Source of the DNA: Patescibacteria group bacterium
GTDB lineage: Bacteria > Patescibacteriota > Minisyncoccia > Phycocordibacterales > SBAW01
Assembly: GCA_016176685.1 (NCBI GenBank)
Contig: JACOWS010000002.1
Location: 94,608 to 158,607, forward strand
Direction of reading: 5' to 3'
Length of the DNA: 64,000 bases
The notes beneath the pieces were generated by a model. That model was not told where the DNA came from. It did no database searches and saw only the letters and a program-made list of their open reading frames with translations. This document shows positions 1,266 through 60,600 of this stretch, one piece after another. The stretch's first letter is position 1; the number at the start of each line of letters is the position of its first letter. The translations under genes and the position numbers were made by a program.

Positions 1266-1300
1266 AACCTTATTATCCACGACCGTTGTAACTAAGGTTA
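1266..1300. repeat. cassette-1 flanking element, copy A (AACCTTAttatccaCGACCGTTgtaacTAAGGTTA)
   Basis: 7-nt terminal inverted repeat AACCTTA/TAAGGTT. Ends 4 nt from the stop codon of the 1305..1886 gene. Confidence 0.7.
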
Positions 1301-1304
1301 ACGA

Positions 1305-1886
1305 CTAAAGACCGAACCACTGTCGCAACTTCTGATCGTTCTCTATCCCTTCTGCTATAAGATATATAACTCCACCACCAAGTCGTAAATCCACTCTCAA
1401 AAAAGCAACGAGCTCTTCGCAGTCAAATGGACATATCCATACACTATTTTGAATACGCCGGAATCCCGCCTTTTGTAAAGCGAGGCGTAATTTGTCACGC
1501 ATTAGCCGGCGACTTTCCCAAATATCAAACATGACTATCCTCCACTTTCCATCCCACGTTTTTGGAACGCGTATGCGAATATGCTCGGCCGCATGCAACT
1601 TTTCTGCATGCGCCATTCCCTTTTCAGTAAGAGTGGCCGACCAGCCCTGCACGCCTTTCTTCCATTGTACCAGGCCTTTTTGCTCGAGCCGGCGAACGGC
1701 CTGCCTTAGCCGCCGTGTCAGCGTTCCTCTCGTAGATTCTGGGAAAAGATGTTTGCGTAGAACCGCCTCAGGGGCAAGGGCGGCACGCGCGTTTCGGGCA
1801 GTTAAACGAAAAATAGCCAGCGTGATTTTTTGTTGGATTTTCTCCCGTCGCGCGCGCTGTGCTATTTTTTCTTCCAGTTTTTCCAT
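1305..1886 (-). CDS. PaaX-like regulator-type protein: N-terminal winged HTH + C-terminal Cas2-like fold domain (paralog 1 of 3)
   Basis: 193 aa. wHTH-like segment LTRRLRQAVRRLEQKGLV. C-terminal W-D-G-K-W-R-I-V-M-F-D-I...LQKAGFRRIQNSVW matches the Cas2/PaaX-middle-domain pattern (hhVhYD....R......L...G.R.Q.SVF). Paralogs at 39728..40318 and 53698..54280. Confidence 0.7.
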   Translation of the reverse strand: MEKLEEKIAQRARREKIQQKITLAIFRLTARNARAALAPEAVLRKHLFPESTRGTLTRRLRQAVRRLEQKGLVQWKKGVQGWSATLTEKGMAHAEKLHAAEHIRIRVPKTWDGKWRIVMFDIWESRRLMRDKLRLALQKAGFRRIQNSVWICPFDCEELVAFLRVDLRLGGGVIYLIAEGIENDQKLRQWFGL

Positions 1887-1887
1887 G

Positions 1888-1922
1888 AACCTTAGTATAC
1901 ACGACCGTTACACTTATGGTTA
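1888..1922. repeat. cassette-1 flanking element, copy B (AACCTTAgtatacaCGACCGTTacactTATGGTTA)
   Basis: 28/35 identical to copy A. Starts 2 nt from the ATG. In gene orientation it provides TGTATACT 7 nt upstream of the ATG, a leaderless-type -10. Confidence 0.7.
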
Positions 1923-2754: not shown

Positions 2755-3960
2755 ATGCGCATCTCTTTTTTTGCCGACAATTTTTACCCGGAACTCTCCG
2801 GGATCCCCGACTCTATCCTCATAACCGGCAAAGAGCTCGTGCAACGCGGTCATCAGGTGTGCTACGTGGCGCCGCACTATGGCGCGCGCGATTACGAAGT
2901 AGTCGCGCGCGCACTGCCCCAGAGGCCGGAGTACCTCGAGGGTATGCCGGTTTTCCGGCTTCCTTCGATACCGCTTCTGCGTTCGCCTACCGGACAATCG
3001 CGTATCGCGCTCCCTACCGGACGCTCCTTTTCTTTTTTGCACGCGTTCAAACCCGACATACTCCATACACACAGCCCTTACGGCGCAGGGCTCGAGGCCC
3101 TGCGTGCGGCGAAGATGTTACGCGTGCCGCTTGTAGGGACAAACCATACGCCGGTTGAAGAATTTTATCGTTTTGCACCAAACATCGCGCGGCGGCTGGA
3201 CGCATGGTATTACAACCATTGTGCCCTCATCACCACGCCCTATCAGGGACTCGTCTCCCGCATGCAAGAGAAGGGTTTTAAACGCCCAGGCCGGGCAATG
3301 CCCAACCCGTTGGAGTTGTCGCTTTTTTATCCTGCAAGAAACGAAGAAGAAAGGGAGCATTTGCGTGCAGAAATGGGGCTTTCTGGACCGGTTGTCATAT
3401 ACTCCGGCAGGCTCGCGAGTGAAAAGCGTGTTGATGTTTTGCTCCACGCGATCAAATTATTGGTCCCAAAGTTCCCTTCCCTCACGCTCCTTGTAACGGG
3501 GCTCGGGATTGAGGCCCATTCTCTGCATACGTTGGCGCAAGAGCTTGATATAGAGGGGCGCGTGCGCTTTACCGGGTTTGTACCGCAAGACGAGCTGGCG
3601 CGCTACTATCGCGCTGCGGACGTCTTTGCCATCATGTCTACAGCCGACAGCCAGTCACTCTCTCTTATGCAAGCATATGCAACCGGCATACCGGCCGTGT
3701 GCGCGGACAGCCGCGGACTCCATGACTACACGCCGAGCGACTGCGGATTTTTGGTAGAGCCGGGCAACCACCACACCTTGGCAGGAAAATTGAAACTTCT
3801 TTTAAACGACTCCGCCTTGCGCGAGCGCATGGGTAAGGCGGCGGCGACTTTCGTTAAAACATTCTCCCCCGAAAAAATCGTAACGGAGTGGGAGAAAATC
3901 TACCGCGACGCTATTGTCCGAAATCTTTCTTTAAAAACTGCGAGCGTACAGAGTGGGTAA
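2755..3960 (+). CDS. GT4 (group 1) glycosyltransferase
   Basis: 401 aa. GT-B C-terminal domain with an E..E-like motif region (YSGRLASEKRVDVLL...GIPAVCAD). Confidence 0.85.
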   Translation: MRISFFADNFYPELSGIPDSILITGKELVQRGHQVCYVAPHYGARDYEVVARALPQRPEYLEGMPVFRLPSIPLLRSPTGQSRIALPTGRSFSFLHAFKPDILHTHSPYGAGLEALRAAKMLRVPLVGTNHTPVEEFYRFAPNIARRLDAWYYNHCALITTPYQGLVSRMQEKGFKRPGRAMPNPLELSLFYPARNEEEREHLRAEMGLSGPVVIYSGRLASEKRVDVLLHAIKLLVPKFPSLTLLVTGLGIEAHSLHTLAQELDIEGRVRFTGFVPQDELARYYRAADVFAIMSTADSQSLSLMQAYATGIPAVCADSRGLHDYTPSDCGFLVEPGNHHTLAGKLKLLLNDSALRERMGKAAATFVKTFSPEKIVTEWEKIYRDAIVRNLSLKTASVQSG

Positions 3961-4510
3961 TAAGATAGTAGATGCCGAATACGACCGCGGTGGCGGCGAT
4001 CAATATTTCCACCCGCACAAGCGTGCTTTCGACGGTCGCAAAGTATCCGCCGAAAAAGTATCCAAGCCCTATCAAAACCGTGTATTGGAAGACGGCGAGG
4101 ATTGCGCTGTATCGCCAAAAAATCTTAAACGGCAAGTGTACCAATCCTGCGCTGATGAGAAGCGGGGTCGAGAGTCCGTACGCAAACTTGGTGATAGCCA
4201 TAGCTTTGAACGGATGTGAGTGCCAAAGACCCCGTACCATTTCGAAATGCTCGGGAGTTATGCGCAGTTTAGGGCCAACCCTTTCGATGAGCGATTTTTT
4301 CTTTCCCCACCGTCCGAAAAAATAATAACCAATGTCGGGAAGTACGTCGGCAAGCACCAGCGTCACAAAGAGCGGCAGTGGGTGGAAGTACCCGAGCGGC
4401 ACCAAGGACCCCGTGATGAAGCCGAGCATCGGGCCCTCGAGGCTCGCCAAGGGAAAGAGTATGAGGTAGCGGTATTGCTCGAGGAGCGCGATAATTGTGG
4501 CAAGTTCCAT
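3911..4510 (-). CDS. DedA/SNARE-associated family membrane protein
   Basis: 199 aa. LILFPLASLEGPMLGFITG motif typical of the DedA family. 4-5 TM helices. Confidence 0.75.
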   Translation of the reverse strand: MELATIIALLEQYRYLILFPLASLEGPMLGFITGSLVPLGYFHPLPLFVTLVLADVLPDIGYYFFGRWGKKKSLIERVGPKLRITPEHFEMVRGLWHSHPFKAMAITKFAYGLSTPLLISAGLVHLPFKIFWRYSAILAVFQYTVLIGLGYFFGGYFATVESTLVRVEILIAATAVVFGIYYLITHSVRSQFLKKDFGQ

Positions 4511-21113: not shown

Positions 21114-22341
21114 AGGAAGCGGAGTTGTAGTTTAGGCCCGCGCTCTCTCCATTACGGGCAAACAGCTCCACGTTGTCTATGAAGACACTGCCTTTTGTCC
21201 CTGGAGTCGCATACACCTGCACGGCGGCGGTCTTAACCAGCACCGAGGTCGGCTGGTACACATAGGAGCGGTCAATGACATTTTGGTTATAGAGCGCGCC
21301 TTGCCACTTGCCGGAGACCCAGGCGCCGCTCTCATCGTACTCGTCTATATAGAAGCCGACTTCTCCCGAAGTAAGATTTTGGCTATCGGTATAGACTCGC
21401 AGCCCGTAGGTTACCCCATGGGATACGGAGACTTTTTTTCCAAACAAGTGGCCGCCTTTTGCGGTGCCCACCACCTTGACGGTGTTTTTGGGTGTCGGGT
21501 AGCTGCCATTGTTGGCGGTATTGAGCTTCATGCTGTTTGTATTGTCGGTAATCCAGCCGGCAAGCTCCTCTTCGAAGCTCGGGTTTGCAATGAGGTTAAC
21601 GGACTGCATAAGCACTTTTGCCACCGTCTTTGTTCTAATGTTTTTTGCGTCCAGATAGTCAATAAAGCTCTGGAACGTAGCCGTCTCCCAGGAGTAGTCG
21701 TCCGTTGGATCAACCGCGGGCAAAATCTCGTGGAATACCAGCACCAGCCAGCCGTCTTGTGCCACCGCTTCGTCTACCCACACTTTTGCCTGTTCCAGAC
21801 TTGTTTGGTTTGTCACATAGCGCACATACAAAAGATATTTGTTGTACGGCCAAAAATTGAGCCCCTGGTTTGCGAAAGCGCGGTGAGAATTATATTTTTT
21901 GGCAATAGCTGAAAGCACAATATTGTCATAAGCGCCAAAAGGAGTCGCAAAGTCGGTTGGGGTGATACCTTTGGCCACAAAGTTGCTGTAGTCTTGGTTA
22001 AGTTCACTGCGAATGGTCGAAAGCGGCACCGTCGGCAGCTCTATGTGCATGAGGCCGTGTGCGGCTACCTCAAAGCCGGTGGTATGAAGGTTCTTTACCT
22101 GATTCCAGGTCATGTACCAATCACTTTGACCTACCAGCCCGGAGTTTATGTAGAAGGTGGCCGTTTGACCCGCGGCTTTCAATAGTTGTGCGGGAGTCTG
22201 GTACTGCGAAGGGTTGCCGTCATCGAACGTCAAGGTCACGGTGCCTGCGGCATGTGCGACGGCCCCGCCTATGACAAACAACATACTCACCACCGCAATG
22301 CGCAGAGTGTGGAGAGAAATATAATTGAAGGAGAGCTTCAT
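21097..22341 (-). CDS. polysaccharide deacetylase (CE4, NodB domain) with C-terminal CBM-like beta-sandwich
   Basis: ORF 21097..22473. Start at MKLSF...AVAHA signal peptide. TLTFDDGNPSQY and HGLMH NodB motifs. C-terminal NLIANPSFEEELAGW-type CBM4/9-like region. Confidence 0.8.
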   Translation of the reverse strand: MKLSFNYISLHTLRIAVVSMLFVIGGAVAHAAGTVTLTFDDGNPSQYQTPAQLLKAAGQTATFYINSGLVGQSDWYMTWNQVKNLHTTGFEVAAHGLMHIELPTVPLSTIRSELNQDYSNFVAKGITPTDFATPFGAYDNIVLSAIAKKYNSHRAFANQGLNFWPYNKYLLYVRYVTNQTSLEQAKVWVDEAVAQDGWLVLVFHEILPAVDPTDDYSWETATFQSFIDYLDAKNIRTKTVAKVLMQSVNLIANPSFEEELAGWITDNTNSMKLNTANNGSYPTPKNTVKVVGTAKGGHLFGKKVSVSHGVTYGLRVYTDSQNLTSGEVGFYIDEYDESGAWVSGKWQGALYNQNVIDRSYVYQPTSVLVKTAAVQVYATPGTKGSVFIDNVELFARNGESAGLNYNSASYVNRE

Positions 22342-22583
22342 ACTTTTAACTATAGTTACTAATCTAATAATAAATAGCTGTTGCGATGATAATTGATTAC
22401 GTATCGGCACAGCGTACAAACGACTAGACACGCGGACACGGCGGTGAGGGTTAAAAAGCCGATGCTTATCCATATATTGCCAGCACTCAAGAGCATATAT
22501 CCTGCGTACCCGCTCAAAGCAGCGGTACTGATTCCTGATATACCTGAACCGCCATTGAAATTAAACATATTATTAGTAGTATT

Positions 22584-27385: not shown

Positions 27386-27446
27386 AACAAAAACCCTCCG
27401 CGCAAGAGTAAGGGTCGCGTGTATCTCTCCGGAGCGGAGGGTTTTT
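27386..27446. terminator. palindromic element at the dsbA-like / nuclease convergent junction (family element A)
   Basis: AAAAACCCTCCGCgcaagagtaagggtcgcgtgTATCTCTCCGGAGCGGAGGGTTTTT. Outer stem CCCTCCGC/GCGGAGGG. Homologous to 43861..43936. Confidence 0.5.
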
Positions 27447-39676: not shown

Positions 39677-39716
39677 TTTACCATATATACCGCTATAGCA
39701 TTGTTTATGGTAAATA
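39677..39716. repeat. cassette-2 flanking element, copy A (TTTACCATATATACCGCTATAGCATtgtTTATGGTAAATA)
   Basis: 37/40 identical to copy at 40324..40362. Terminal inverted repeat TTTACCATA/TATGGTAAA. Ends 11 nt from the stop codon of the 39728..40318 gene. Confidence 0.7.
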
Positions 39717-39727
39717 CCTTGTTGCAT

Positions 39728-40318
39728 TTATTCTAAATCAAAATGCTGTTTAAGGTGTTTATCGTTCTCTAATCCTTCCGCAATGATATATAGAATGCCC
39801 GACCCAAGCTTTAGATCACTCCGTATGAATGCAATAAGTTCTTCGCAGGGATACGGGTGTACCCAGACGCTGTCTTGCAACATATAAAATCCAGCTTTCT
39901 TAAGGATGTTTCGCAACCGCTCTCGAACTTGCTTGCGTTTCTCCCACACATCAAAAATGACCACCCTCCATTTTCCATCCCATCGACGCGGCTGGCGAAT
40001 TTCTATACGACGGACAACCTCAAGCCGTTCGGCAAATTTCTCACCCTTTGTGGTCAATAGTATTCTCCACTCCTTCCCTTTTCCTTCTTGCTGAACAAGA
40101 CCACGAGACTCTAGACGTCTTACAGCTTGTTGGATACGATACCCAGGCTTACGTTTTTTTGCGAGGTCTGGATCAATGCGCTTTAACAGCCTGAGAGTGT
40201 TTGGAGCTAGTAGCACCATAGAAAGTGCGGCCGCACTGTACAGAGCAAGGACGAGGCCATCCTGTACTCGAACTCGTTTAGTAATTTTTCGGCTTCGCTC
40301 CTCTAACTGCCCCATCAC
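39728..40318 (-). CDS. PaaX-like wHTH + Cas2-fold protein (paralog 2 of 3)
   Basis: 196 aa. RRWDGKWRVVIFDVWEKRKQVRERLRNILKKAGFYMLQDSVWVHPYPCEELIAF. About 45% identical to the 1305..1886 protein over the C-terminal half. Confidence 0.7.
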   Translation of the reverse strand: MMGQLEERSRKITKRVRVQDGLVLALYSAAALSMVLLAPNTLRLLKRIDPDLAKKRKPGYRIQQAVRRLESRGLVQQEGKGKEWRILLTTKGEKFAERLEVVRRIEIRQPRRWDGKWRVVIFDVWEKRKQVRERLRNILKKAGFYMLQDSVWVHPYPCEELIAFIRSDLKLGSGILYIIAEGLENDKHLKQHFDLE

Positions 40319-40323
40319 TCCAG

Positions 40324-40362
40324 TTTACCATATATACCGCTATAGCATAAATTATGGTAAAT
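40324..40362. repeat. cassette-2 flanking element, copy B
   Basis: Direct repeat of 39677..39716. Begins ~5 nt upstream of the GTG/ATG start. Confidence 0.7.
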
Positions 40363-40410
40363 ATGTTTTGATTTAGATTGTAACTGTAAAAACTATAGCC
40401 ATTGAGCTAC

Positions 40411-43861: not shown

Positions 43862-43936
43862 TTGGGCGGAAAAGTCCTCCGTGCAGGAGTAGGGCTCTTG
43901 TTTATCTCTCCGGAGCGGAGGACTTTTCCGCCCAAC
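43861..43936. terminator. 21-bp perfect stem-loop filling the rnr/smc convergent junction (family element B)
   Basis: GTTGGGCGGAAAAGTCCTCCG ... CGGAGGACTTTTCCGCCCAAC. The loop carries TATCTCTCCGGAGCGGAGG, shared with the element at 27386..27446. Confidence 0.5.
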
Positions 43937-52347: not shown

Positions 52348-53574
52348 ATGGAAGAACGCGATCATAAAAAGTTGGGGCCGGCACTGGGCCTCTTTTACAT
52401 AGACCAAACGGTTGGCAAGGGGCTCCCTATGTTTTTACCAAAAGGGGCGATAATCAAACGCGAGCTTGAAAAGTTTGTGGTGGAAGAGGAAACCAAACGC
52501 GGCTACCTACACGTTATCACCCCCGACCTGGCGCGGTTGGAGCTATACAAAAAAAGCGGCCACTACCCGCACTACAGAGACTCCATGTACGCGCCCATTG
52601 TGATAGACGACGAGGAGTTTATGCTCCGGCCGATGACCTGCCCGCACCACTTCCAACTCTACCTGTCTCGACCGCACAGCTACAAAGAGCTCCCGATGCG
52701 CATTGCCGAGCTGGCACAGCTATACCGCTACGAGCAGTCCGGCGAGCTGATGGGCCTCCAGCGCGTACGCACATTTTGCCTGGCAGATGCGCACATTATC
52801 TGCGCGAACGAAGAGCAGGCAATGCAGGAAATGAGCGACGCGCTCGACCTCATCGAGCATATGGCGGGAGTATTTGGGCTCAAACTGGGCGAGCACTATC
52901 GTTACCGCCTGTCGCTTGGCGACCGCGCTAACACCGAAAAGTATTACAAAAACGACGCCGCGTGGGAAAAAGGCGAGGACATGCTGCGCCGCGTGATGCA
53001 AAACCGCGAATGCGAGTTCGAGGAGGCCAAAGACGAGGCCGCGTTTTACGGCCCCAAGGTGGACATACAGATGAAGAACGCCAATGGCAAAGAAGACACG
53101 GCGTTTACCTGCCAATACGACTTTTGCATGCCGGACCGCTTTAACCTCACCTACATCGGCGAGGACGGCAAAGACCACCGCGCGTTTGTGGTGCACCGCT
53201 CCTCCATAGGCGCCATAGAGCGCAGTATGGCGTTTTTGATAGAGCACTATGCCGGGGCCTTCCCCACGTGGCTCTCGCCCGTGCAGGCGCGGGTCTTGCC
53301 TATTGCCGACGCGCACAAAACCTTTGCAAAAGATGTTTTAAAACAATTGAAGGATGCCGGTATCCGCGCCGATATAGACGAGAGCAACGAAACGCTGGGT
53401 AAAAAAGTGCGCGAGGCAAAGACGGAAAAGATCCCCTACCTTTTGGTAATAGGCGACAAAGAAATGCAGGAGCAAAAAGCGGCGCTGGAAGGCCGCGACC
53501 ACGGCAAGCTCGGGGTACTGCCTGTGGCCGACATTATTTCAAAACTCAAAGAAGAAATAAAAAACCGATCTTAG
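52348..53574 (+). CDS. thrS: threonyl-tRNA synthetase catalytic core + anticodon-binding domain (no N-terminal TGS/editing domains)
   Basis: Starts MEERDHKKLGPALGLF, the beginning of the class II catalytic domain. 409 aa. The track ORF is artificially extended upstream in the dnaE overlap. Confidence 0.85.
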   Translation: MEERDHKKLGPALGLFYIDQTVGKGLPMFLPKGAIIKRELEKFVVEEETKRGYLHVITPDLARLELYKKSGHYPHYRDSMYAPIVIDDEEFMLRPMTCPHHFQLYLSRPHSYKELPMRIAELAQLYRYEQSGELMGLQRVRTFCLADAHIICANEEQAMQEMSDALDLIEHMAGVFGLKLGEHYRYRLSLGDRANTEKYYKNDAAWEKGEDMLRRVMQNRECEFEEAKDEAAFYGPKVDIQMKNANGKEDTAFTCQYDFCMPDRFNLTYIGEDGKDHRAFVVHRSSIGAIERSMAFLIEHYAGAFPTWLSPVQARVLPIADAHKTFAKDVLKQLKDAGIRADIDESNETLGKKVREAKTEKIPYLLVIGDKEMQEQKAALEGRDHGKLGVLPVADIISKLKEEIKNRS

Positions 53575-53617
53575 AGCTAAAGAACCGATCTTAGAGGTAT
53601 TACTGAGTCGCAACAGT

Positions 53618-53657
53618 ATGTAATATTTACTACACTATAGTTTCTTATTTATTACAT
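53618..53657. repeat. cassette-3 flanking element, copy A (ATGTAATatttACTACACTATAGtttcTTATTTATTACAT)
   Basis: Direct repeat of 54283..54322 (shared ACTATAG..TT.TTATTTATTACA). Terminal inverted repeat ATGTAAT/ATTACAT. Confidence 0.6.
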
Positions 53658-53697
53658 TCCTCTTACCTTATTAAGATGGTGTTGCGGTAGCAGGATA

Positions 53698-54280
53698 TTA
53701 GCCGAGTCTGAAGTGGATGCGCAGAGCCCGATCGTCTTCCACCCTATCAACGATCAGATACAAGACATCCCTACCCAATCCAAGCTCCGCTTTGAGTAAA
53801 ACAACAAACTCTTCACAATTATATGGATATATCCATACGCTATCCTGGAGTCGCACAAAACCGATACCAGTAAGTATTGCCCGCACCTCGCCACGGAGTG
53901 CGTCTTTCAGGGATATCAAAAATCACAACGCGCCACTTTTTATCCCATTTTTTGGGTTTTTTTACCTTGTAGCCGCGAAGTTCCCATTGAGCTACACAAT
54001 TCTTTCCTTTTTTAGTTAGTACAACAAAGGATCCCCGACGGGTCTTTTCCATCATAAGAAATCCCCCTGCGACGAGTCTGGAAATTGCTTTTTTTGTTTG
54101 ATATTTTTTCTGCCGTTCGTACTGCTTCAAAAAAGGTTTTAGCATTGATAGAGCGTTTGGGGCTATGAGTGCTGTGGAGATTACTCCAACCGCAGCTACC
54201 GAGCCGAGTACGGCACGCCGGACAGTGGTCATGCGCATTTTTTTCCGCAGGTCTTTCTCAAGAGATACAGGTGGTTTCAT
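53698..54280 (-). pseudogene. PaaX-like wHTH + Cas2-fold paralog 3, disrupted by a frameshift near 53900-53920
   Basis: Two overlapping ORFs. 53840..54280 ends ...KWDKKWRVVIFDIPERR (then out of frame). 53698..53919 is the C-terminal half ...LRGEVRAILTGIGFVRLQDSVWIYPYNCEEFVVLL. Restoring one A in a GAAAGA run reunites them. Confidence 0.55.
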
Positions 54281-54282
54281 AC

Positions 54283-54322
54283 TTGTAGCGGATAACCTAC
54301 TATAGAATTTTATTTATTACAA
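54283..54322. repeat. cassette-3 flanking element, copy B
   Basis: TTGTAgcggataaCCTACTATAGaattTTATTTATTACAA. Begins 3 nt upstream of the start codon. Confidence 0.6.
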
Positions 54323-54374
54323 TAAGTTTCGATTTGTCACAGATTTGCCACATCAGACTGGTATCAGGAAACAC

Positions 54375-54402
54375 AAAACCCGCCGTACGGCGGGTTTTGT
54401 GT
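54375..54402. terminator. palindromic terminator AAAACCCGCCGTACGGCGGGTTTT
   Basis: Perfect palindrome flanked by A/T tracts, downstream of the 54473..55393 gene. Confidence 0.5.
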
Positions 54403-54472
54403 TGGACAATGTTTTGCCTTGTCATCCATAGCCATTGGCGACGGAGGGGAGCTCACATCCGCTTTCTTTTAT

Positions 54473-55393
54473 TTATGCGCGGGCGCGAGAAATTTGCGCT
54501 GCGATGAACGGGTCGACACCGGACGGGATCTTGGCAGAGACCGGCTCGTTTTTGGAGAAAGTTGGCGCAGTTACCTCGGCTGACTTTTCAACACTCCGCT
54601 CTGCCGTAGGCGAACCAAAGAGAAACGAGTTCAGCGAGCGGTAGATGCCGGTCTGTACGCGCTTGACCACCAAGAGGTACGCGATGAAGAAGGCCCACAG
54701 CGCGAGGAAGCCCCAGTAGAGCGCGGTGCCAACCGGCCCCAGCTCCAAGCCCGTGTAGGGCACCTGCGAAAGGGTCACATACGGAGTGGTCGGGTTGTTG
54801 TAGACAACCGGGTTGTATTTGTAGCAGTTGGGATAGGTACCGTACCAGCCAGACTGACAGGCGGGCTGCGTGTAGGTATTGTAATAATTGTTGACCGGCT
54901 GTACCACCTGCGTCGCAGGAATATTGACCGTTACCGTATTGTTGTTGGTGTTAGTGTTGGTAACGGTAGTGGTCTGTGTTTGCTGTTGCTGTTGTGTTTG
55001 GGTCTGCGTCTGCGAACCGCCGCCGGTGGAGCCGGACGGGCCGTACGCAAAGCCGTAGTTGCTGTAAAAACCAGGAGAGGAATACGAGTATGAGGGATAG
55101 GAGTAAGAAGGAGTGGAGTAGCTGTACGAAGGATACGAATAGTCAATTGAGGAGGTGTAGCTCGGAGTATAGTAGTCGTAGGATGGATAAGAGTAGTCAA
55201 TGGACGACGTGTAGCTTGGAGTGTAGTAGTCGTAGGAAGGGTATGAGTAGTCTATAGAGTCGGTGTAGCTGGGGTAGTAGCCATAGTCTGCCGCATGAGC
55301 AACAGCCGGTGTGATAACCGGAGCGACAGAGAACACAAGCGCCGCAAAAGCGATGCTTACTGCACGAGGTGTGTTGGTCATGCTGTTTTTCAT
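54473..55393 (-). CDS. secreted Tyr/Ser/Pro-rich repeat protein with polyQ/T linker and C-terminal TM segment preceded by VPYTG
   Basis: 306 aa. Signal peptide. 3x 18-aa repeat SIDYSYPSYDYYTPSYTS then YSYPSYSYSSP heptad-like units. TQTQTQQQQQTQTTT. C-terminal VPYTG-LELGPVGTALYWGFLALWAFFIAYLLVV-KR. Confidence 0.7.
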   Translation of the reverse strand: MKNSMTNTPRAVSIAFAALVFSVAPVITPAVAHAADYGYYPSYTDSIDYSYPSYDYYTPSYTSSIDYSYPSYDYYTPSYTSSIDYSYPSYSYSTPSYSYPSYSYSSPGFYSNYGFAYGPSGSTGGGSQTQTQTQQQQQTQTTTVTNTNTNNNTVTVNIPATQVVQPVNNYYNTYTQPACQSGWYGTYPNCYKYNPVVYNNPTTPYVTLSQVPYTGLELGPVGTALYWGFLALWAFFIAYLLVVKRVQTGIYRSLNSFLFGSPTAERSVEKSAEVTAPTFSKNEPVSAKIPSGVDPFIAAQISRARA

Positions 55394-60565: not shown

Positions 60566-60600
60566 AACCTTAATCGTAACGACCGTTATAGCTAAGGTTA
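60566..60600. repeat. solo copy of the cassette-1 element (AACCTTAatcgtaaCGACCGTTatagcTAAGGTTA)
   Basis: 28/35 identical to 1266..1300. Lies in the pheT-gyrB intergenic region with no adjacent PaaX-like gene. Confidence 0.6.

Follow-up and report, generated by a model that had tools for sequence, protein, structure and literature searches.

Pseudogene of a predicted mini-PaaX autorepressor between two copies of its putative operator in a Patescibacteria genome

PaaX, the phenylacetyl-CoA-responsive regulator of Escherichia coli and Pseudomonas, is built from a winged helix followed by the Cas2-like domain PF20803, and is about 310 amino acids (aa) long with its ligand domain PaaX_C. The E. 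coli operator of PaaX is TGATTC(N27)GAATCA and spans 39 bp (review PMC9493321). A family with the same order of predicted winged helix and PF20803 domain, but of about 190 aa and without PaaX_C, was analysed here starting from 64,000 nucleotides (nt) of a Patescibacteria group bacterium (assembly GCA_016176685.1, contig JACOWS010000002.1, positions 94,608 to 158,607 of the forward strand), referred to below as the window. Three genes of this family, each flanked by a pair of repeats and called a cassette together with them, are found in the window; the third, 53698..54280(-), is frameshifted and is the subject of this report. The family sites, at which binding is predicted, resemble the PaaX operator in length (both ~38–39 bp), in their short inverted arms set far apart and in their overlap with a promoter. 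They differ from it by a conserved CTATAG or CGRYCG centre and by a second copy 3′ of the gene in ~90% of members. Unlike PaaX, the family is present in a genome as many divergent paralogs, every one of them with a private predicted operator, and no paa genes were found among the neighbours of family genes in the window or in related loci.

Auxiliary operators that are not the promoter of another gene are likewise known for lambda CI (OR/OL bracketing cI-rexAB), lac (O1/O2) and gal (OE/OI). In lambda, where autoregulation involves long-range looping, the repressor gene lies between its own operators, as is proposed here, although the proteins are unrelated and looping is only suggested for the present family; in addition, the distance is ~650 bp in the family and the gene itself would fill the proposed loop. 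With Cas2 the family shares the ferredoxin-like beta-alpha-beta-beta-alpha-beta fold and the conserved Asp of beta-1; in contrast to Cas2, its domain is fused to a predicted winged helix, only its first ~40 residues match Cas2, and cas1 and a CRISPR array are lacking. Insertion sequences, too, hold a single gene between two site copies that co-vary with the protein, with promoter elements in the upstream copy, but the family lacks target-site duplications, recent copies and a transposase fold, its ends are full palindromes, and its synteny is stable. A literature search, which did not cover all journals, returned nothing that links PaaX-like proteins with Patescibacteria or with a bracketed-operator layout, and the family with this layout is apparently undescribed in the searchable literature.

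It is considered probable, at roughly two chances in three, that 53698..54280(-) is the pseudogene of an autorepressor bracketed by two copies of its own predicted ~38-bp operator. The elements of cassette 3 are as follows (ORF, open reading frame):

53698..54280, minus strand: pseudogene of a predicted mini-PaaX regulator (two ORFs; paralog and ortholog comparison; PF20803 in the repaired protein)
53840..54280, minus strand: N-terminal ORF of the pseudogene, 146 aa
53698..53919, minus strand: C-terminal ORF of the pseudogene, 73 aa, in another frame and overlapping the N-terminal ORF
53899..53900, minus strand: site of a 5-nt deletion (DNA alignments against contigs L001–L003 and L089–L093)
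54283..54322, minus strand: upstream site, U (repeat, palindrome, conserved in orthologous loci)
53618..53657, minus strand: downstream site, D (repeat and palindrome)

A sequence-only reading of the stretch had described a frameshifted third paralog at this place, and this description was borne out: two overlapping minus-strand ORFs encode the N- and C-terminal parts in different frames and together are collinear with the intact paralogs 39728..40318(-) and 1305..1886(-) (tblastn within the window). The alignment with both paralogs that had been proposed there shows the same type of gene, the three being mutually 32–35% identical. The lesion itself had been given as the loss of one nt in an A/T run at ~53900–53920, and here the analysis departs from that reading. 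A single missing base is excluded as the cause because the change from the N- to the C-terminal frame skips one base; alignment of the DNA to the orthologous loci L001–L003 (~95% nt identity) likewise rules out the 1-nt model and locates 5 missing nt between 53899 and 53900. At this point the sequence is GAAAAACGCAAACAACTCCGT in the orthologs and GAAAGACGC-----ACTCCGT in the window, with no homopolymer, and a check for a homopolymer error is thus inapplicable as framed. The deleted nt (AAACA/CAAAC in the orthologs) take out part of the conserved E-K-R-K-Q-L-R stretch behind beta-1 of the Cas2-like domain.

Intact orthologs of 195/201 aa with 93–94% identity were retrieved from the database (P0001–P0004), together with the window's own truncated 146-aa product (P0005, NCBI HYS79_01595). 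The gene order terminator, gene, convergent thrS is common to L001–L003 and the window. The gene is also intact in five further contigs (L089–L093) and in three obtained from a metagenome scan (L096, L104, L107); the 5 nt are present in 10/10 related contigs, and the deletion occurs only in the window. One database product of 120 aa (P0006) was considered as a second, independent disruption and rejected, five contigs holding an intact full-length ORF and the short product being a matter of the start-codon call. A programmed +1 frameshift was rejected as well: no slippery or stall motif is present at CCT GAA AGA CGC ACT, and the orthologs are collinear without a shift.

When the window is compared with L001, 18 codon differences are synonymous and 11 nonsynonymous, the corresponding numbers past the frameshift being 8 and 2. 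From these counts the loss of cassette 3 is taken to be recent; barring an error of assembly at the deletion, the cassette is a very young pseudogene. That the frameshift goes back to an error in assembly or consensus, or to a minority variant, with the gene intact in the organism, is rather unlikely. The 5 nt carried by all ten related contigs, the apparent selection on the region past the frameshift and the origin of the sequence from a metagenome-assembled genome would agree with an artefact. A 5-nt deletion outside a homopolymer is, on the other hand, an atypical short-read error; three other lineage-specific indels (20, 11 and 5 nt) within the same 800 bp indicate that real small indels accumulate here; and the NCBI record has the same truncated 146-aa product.

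The repaired cassette 3 protein matches PF20803 (PaaX_M, the central Cas2-like domain of PaaX) with E = 1.7e-16 and the two paralogs with 6.9e-20 and 3.9e-20, all three exceeding the 24-bit cut-off. The match to TIGR02277 (PaaX) is partial (model positions 35–133) and reaches 45–56 bits against a cut-off of 264.55. PF08223 (PaaX_C) is not matched, the protein stopping after the Cas2-like domain at ~195 aa, and PF07848 is not matched by the three paralogs in Pfam. A profile of the family aligned to the structure of E. coli PaaX (8a39) with E = 2.5e-5 over residues 57–135, which span the recognition helix, the wing, the linker and beta1-alpha1 of the Cas2-like domain. The AlphaFold 2 model has a mean pLDDT (predicted local distance difference test) of 74, with values >85 from residue 60 on and <50 for the first ~56 residues; in a Foldseek search with this model 8a39 was the top match, followed by Cas2 structures. 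From these profile and model comparisons, the cassette 3 gene would once have encoded a mini-PaaX of ~195 aa, with a PaaX-type winged helix and a Cas2-like domain and without PaaX_C.

Members of the family bear the public names "CRISPR-associated endonuclease Cas2", "DNA-binding transcriptional regulator PaaX" and "hypothetical protein". Cas2 profiles match only positions 2 to ~40, TIGR01573 being marginal (21–31 bits against a cut-off of 24.5, partial model). The ORFs around the family genes of the window are housekeeping genes without cas1, and no CRISPR array, i.e., no regularly spaced repeat family, was found within the 64-kb window. Because the match covers ~40 residues and neither cas1 nor an array is nearby, the Cas2 name is poorly founded and is best regarded as a mis-annotation. 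The protein is a truncated relative of PaaX that would work in a PaaX-like manner; it is neither a PaaX equivalog nor a Cas2. The family comprises 1,820 clusters at 90% identity (word-indexed search) and, at 50% identity, 630, 3,211 and 6,375 representatives at E ≤ 1e-30, 1e-10 and 1e-3, respectively.

The repeats flanking cassette 3, which the sequence-only reading had reported as intact, are still recognisable: 53634–53656 and 54299–54321 are identical at 20/23 positions as a direct repeat, and the 40-mers 53618–53657 and 54283–54322 at 26/40. The alignment score of 31 is just over the 99th percentile (29.3) of the cross-locus controls described below, and the pair is conserved in the orthologous loci. 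Read in gene orientation, U is TTGTAATAAATAAAATTCTATAGTAGGTTATCCGCTACAA, with outer arms TTGTA/TACAA, a CTATAG centre and 13/20 palindromic positions; D is ATGTAATAAATAAGAAACTATAGTGTAGTAAATATTACAT, with arms ATGTAATA/TATTACAT, a CTATAG centre and 15/20 palindromic positions. D lies ~40 nt beyond the stop codon and belongs to the 4 palindromes of this kind counted in 64 kb, where 0.55 would be expected. The corresponding elements of the other two cassettes, and a site of the paralog 1 type away from any family gene, are the following:

1305..1886, minus strand: intact paralog 1 gene, 193 aa, single frame (tblastn)
1266..1922, minus strand: cassette 1 with its sites 1266–1300 and 1888–1922, AACCTTA-N6-ACGACCGTT-N6-TAAGGTT
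39728..40318, minus strand: intact paralog 2 gene, 196 aa, single frame (tblastn)
39677..40362, minus strand: cassette 2 with its sites 39677–39715 and 40324–40362, TTTACCATA-N7-CTATAG-N7-TATGGTAAA
60566..60600, no strand assigned: orphan site of the paralog 1 type, AACCTTAATCGTAACGACCGTTATAGCTAAGGTTA, 22 nt past the pheT stop and ~150 nt upstream of gyrB

The two sites of cassette 1 are identical at 28/35 positions. When 150 nt on each side of the gene were compared for cassette 2, the match ran over 39677–39730 and 40324–40375; here the likeness of U and D continues for ~15 nt past the palindrome, on the flank that faces away from the gene start (39716–39730 / 40363–40375; TAAAT-CAA-AAC) and reaches the stop codon in the downstream copy, unlike the sharp boundary at ±19 that is seen for the family. 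A third, weak match of the cassette 3 repeat at 22349–22371 was rejected as an operator, being a promoter-like TATAGT-N7-ATG stretch without outer arms. A scan of metagenomes for sites of the cassette 3 type (TGTARTAAATAANNNNCTATAGT) gave three related contigs with the known downstream copy only and 16 chance matches in AT-rich DNA.

The generality of the arrangement was examined as follows: 80 homologous loci were fetched from Patescibacteria assemblies (one genome per species), 76 of which were usable, and the 150 nt upstream of the gene were locally aligned with the 150 nt downstream of it, with cross-locus pairs and shuffled sequences as controls. The median score was 49 in the 76 loci, as compared with 16 in both types of control, and 89% of the loci lay above the 99th percentile of the cross-locus control (~1% in cross-locus controls). 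Among 130 neighbouring genes of these loci, the median was 16 and 1.5% exceeded the same threshold. Because 89% of the loci but only 1.5% of the neighbouring genes show it, the private repeat pair is characteristic of the gene family and not a peculiarity of the window.

Each copy is a near-palindrome of 36–40 bp (roughly 38 bp). In 57 loci anchored on the palindrome centre, U and D agree best in the 8-nt outer arms (±11 to 18; identity ~0.9) and in the centre (±2 to 4; ~0.9 to 1.0), the latter being typically (G/C)CTATAG(G/C) or CGRYCG; identity is 0.55–0.8 in the spacers and falls sharply to a background of 0.3 beyond ±19. Such a profile would be that of a bounded, selected protein-binding site and not of a decaying duplication scar. 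Relative to U, D is direct in 28 of these loci and inverted in 10, the orientation being undecidable in the other 19. Apparent flips of the centre (CGACCG versus CGGTCG) were considered as footprints of inversion and rejected: all four CGRYCG variants occur, which is R/Y degeneracy. The distance between U and D is 594–749 bp (median 651). In one locus (L067, 1–2600) there are four copies of the regulator's 38-bp site, ~600 nt apart; they separate three tandem paralogous membrane-protein genes (131–133 aa) and then bracket the regulator gene, a layout suggestive of gene punctuation or of a small regulon. Another locus (L079) has an extra site copy at 1873, ~600 nt upstream of U and with no ORF of at least 50 aa in between, which may mark a lost paralog; further downstream in the same locus (3171–4400) lies a convergent, reverse-transcriptase-like gene (409 aa).

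The ATG is located exactly at the edge of U, 17–19 nt from the centre, in 20/57 loci, and 28% of U copies have TANNNT at +6, as compared with 11% of D copies. TATAAT-N7-ATG occurs in L005, L013 and L015, and TATACT-N7-ATG in the upstream copy of cassette 1. The placement of these elements suggests that U is the promoter and operator of a leaderless mRNA and D a promoter-less copy. In U of cassette 3, TATAGT is a candidate –10 box. Elsewhere in the window (22335–22375), TATAGT-N7-ATG precedes a minus-strand ORF with a probable start at 22341; the spacing is that found at many family promoters and hints that leaderless mRNAs are common in the genome.

The arms of the sites vary together with the protein: arm identity is ~0.8 for protein pairs that are at least 60% identical and ~0.33 for pairs below 45%. 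Excess mutual information with the arm bases peaks at residues 50–67 (9/10 of the top columns), where the helix that precedes the wing begins, and is lowest in the Cas2-like domain. It counts against the proposed regulator that both analyses were exploratory and are confounded by shared ancestry; because of the contrast within the protein, high at residues 50–67 and low in the Cas2-like domain, they point to the winged helix as the predicted reader of the arms.

The putative operator would consist of 8-bp specificity arms at ±11 to ±18 around the CTATAG or CGRYCG centre, and a dimer, or a dimer of dimers, would sit on each site through two winged helices. Since the upstream site covers promoter and start, its occupancy would shut out RNA polymerase and lead to autorepression. 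The second copy, just past the stop codon, would be kept by selection for the gene's own sake; most probably it would act by cooperative looping between U and D over ~650 bp and/or as a protein roadblock against readthrough from either side, and this role by looping or insulation is the least certain step of the proposal. In cassette 3, the gene would just have been inactivated by the 5-nt deletion, with both operators left behind.

Besides the shared ancestry, several observations weigh against this proposal. The identity of 0.55–0.8 between the spacers of U and D is above what a pure read-out of arms and centre would need, and gene conversion or recent duplication may contribute to it. The spacing of U and D shows no clear helical phasing (best p ~0.02 over six periods tested), a result that speaks neither for nor against looping at ~650 bp. 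As to cassette 3, its ATG lies 18 nt past TATAGT, so that the leaderless model fits poorly, its upstream site is a weak palindrome (13/20 positions), and a simple sigma-70 scan of 53450–54500 gave no consensus promoter. No second target of the cassette 3 type was found, very little of the related genomes being searchable. The orphan site 60566–60600 is ~125 nt upstream of the TGGTATAAT extended –10 box before gyrB and could be a relic instead of a regulatory target; it could equally serve as a remote operator or roadblock.

An improbable reading is that U, gene and D form a self-bracketing module, either because the protein synapses both palindromes and so brings about excision, inversion or gene conversion, or because an insulated chromatin domain of 650 bp is formed. 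In the first form, the module would be a minimal, Cas1-independent relative of repeat-duplicating integration and would leave solo sites such as 60566–60600 behind; in the second, it would belong to a general gene-punctuation system in Patescibacteria, a role to which L067 points, four consecutive genes being separated there by the site.

More doubtful still is that the cassette is a small transposable or integrative element and cassette 3 a decaying insertion, as the sequence-only reading implied when it described the cassette as lodged between its neighbours. The palindromes would then be ends bound by the winged-helix/Cas2-like protein, or duplications of the whole site made on insertion. 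CRISPR repeats and casposon target sites are duplicated on insertion, and a Cas2-like domain is present here. A gene between two protein-specific sites with a promoter in the upstream end resembles an insertion sequence with terminal inverted repeats, the gene is often found at "safe" intergenic spots between convergent genes, the solo site 60566–60600 could be an excision relic, and the orientation of D relative to U is mixed. The remaining evidence speaks against mobility. Target-site duplications are lacking (longest shared substring outside the sites 3.60, as compared with 3.54 in permuted controls; 57 loci). Paralogs of the same assembly are 31–63% identical, the trio of the window being at the lower end of this range, and none are near-identical. 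The gene occupies the same position in ten related contigs, with limited sampling of close relatives. No transposase, integrase, recombinase or Cas1 domain was found with Pfam, NCBIfam, PADLOC and PHROGs, and no CRISPR array was found in the window. Every end is a complete palindrome and not half of an inverted pair, the spacers diverge while arms and centre are held, and in L067 the same site lies between unrelated genes. The copies away from family genes (60566–60600 and L067) fit a role in a regulon or in gene punctuation. An integron gene cassette was also considered: no integrase is present among the neighbouring ORFs, the sites fold weakly as single-stranded DNA, and, unlike integron attC, they flank the gene on both sides and are specific to it.

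It is very unlikely that the downstream copy is only the promoter or operator of the next gene, with no role for the regulator gene. This would suit cassette 1, the downstream copy of which lies upstream of a codirectional glycosyltransferase gene, and the downstream neighbour is codirectional in 41/77 loci. It is, however, convergent in the other 36/77, including cassettes 2 and 3, and D is kept in 90% of the codirectional and 90% of the convergent loci (Mann–Whitney p = 0.76); moreover, the –10-like element of the upstream copy is usually absent in D. Because it is kept equally in both settings, D acts on behalf of the regulator gene and not of a target operon. As a general explanation, the next-gene role is largely refuted; it may hold at individual loci. 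That the repeats act as RNA or single-strand hairpins (structures of untranslated regions, terminators, attC-like or IS200-like ends) is the least credible explanation, since, although each site is near-palindromic and the downstream copy lies in a 3′-untranslated position, the window sites fold weakly as single strands (–1.1 to –5.5 kcal/mol, z-scores +0.75 to –2.6) and have neither U-tracts nor an Rfam family, an upstream copy of the leaderless class would be untranscribed and yet is conserved like the downstream copy, and arms and centre are conserved with free spacers and no compensatory stem pattern.

The surroundings of the autorepressor pseudogene contain these further features:

52348..53574, plus strand: thrS, a short threonyl-tRNA synthetase with class II core and anticodon domain (PF00587 and PF03129 in orthologous genes)
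53553..53592, plus strand: 20-nt tandem duplication over the thrS stop codon (copies 53553–53572 and 53573–53592, 85% identical)
54370..54403, no strand assigned: perfect, GC-rich hairpin with 17-bp arms, conserved in orthologous loci

The thrS gene is convergent with the pseudogene, and its start is uncertain: the ORF reaches back to 51973, and 52348 is the first ATG that fits the N-terminus of the orthologs. On the other side, the hairpin is a predicted bidirectional, terminator-like element that would close the surface-protein gene 54473..55393(-), which agrees with the location between thrS and a terminator-protected surface-protein operon given in the sequence-only reading. Rfam yielded only chance sub-threshold matches for the hairpin, and Rfam together with promoter and terminator scans of the cassette 3 locus gave nothing else. 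The same reading had placed a 20-bp duplication at the thrS stop immediately beside the cassette. The duplication is present, but it is confined to the lineage of the window and is single-copy in all related contigs with the same gene arrangement; because of this absence, it is unrelated to any insertion of the cassette. Together with the 5-nt deletion and the 20-nt duplication, two further indels bring the number to four within ~800 bp, most of which is non-coding: 11 nt are tandemly duplicated at 54331–54352 (GATTTGTCACA/GATTTGCCACA) in the window and not in the relatives, and an extra tandem copy of AATGT beside the downstream repeat (53658–53662) is found only in the relatives. The 20-nt, 11-nt and AATGT indels appear to be ordinary lineage-specific changes that are uninformative on cassette insertion.

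The surface protein has a signal peptide, a linker rich in Q, T and N and a membrane anchor at its C-terminus, and its gene contains three 54-nt (18-aa) tandem repeats rich in Y, S and P (SIDYSYPSYDYYTPSYTS); the C-terminal end of the protein is strongly divergent from that of the L001 ortholog. The neighbours of the three family genes in the window are dnaE, thrS, the surface-protein gene, trmD and a glycosyltransferase gene, and in related loci aminoacyl-tRNA synthetase, NUDIX, Obg and GatB genes are found near family genes. In L084/L085 (2587–4582) a homolog of cassette 3 (P0011, 52% identical) lies beside a class II aminoacyl-tRNA synthetase gene, codirectional with it and downstream of it, and has site arms TTGTAC...GTACAA as in cassette 3; this context hints at an old association of the cassette 3 type of gene with the neighbourhood of a synthetase. 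A difference of 155 nt between L084 and L085 downstream of the homolog is a scaffold gap of Ns and is uninformative. Apart from the cassettes, a 58-nt hairpin-like element occurs twice, at 27389–27446 and 43870–43927 (AAAAACCCTCCGCGC...GGAGCGGAGGGTTTTT), in copies that are 81% identical and 16.5 kb distant from each other; shared terminators and a small structured RNA are both conceivable.

Taken alone, cassette 3 is an ordinary, young pseudogene, and the architecture found throughout its family is the interesting by-product of its analysis. If the proposed reading is true, hundreds of pairs of transcription factor and operator would be readable from the genomes of uncultivated Patescibacteria. 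These would provide a training set for the recognition code of winged helices and a route to the prediction of regulons in organisms with almost no known regulation, as well as a case in which to test what the second operator behind an autorepressor gene is needed for, be it looping or insulation. A widespread error in annotation, by which members of the family are named Cas2 or PaaX, would also be corrected.

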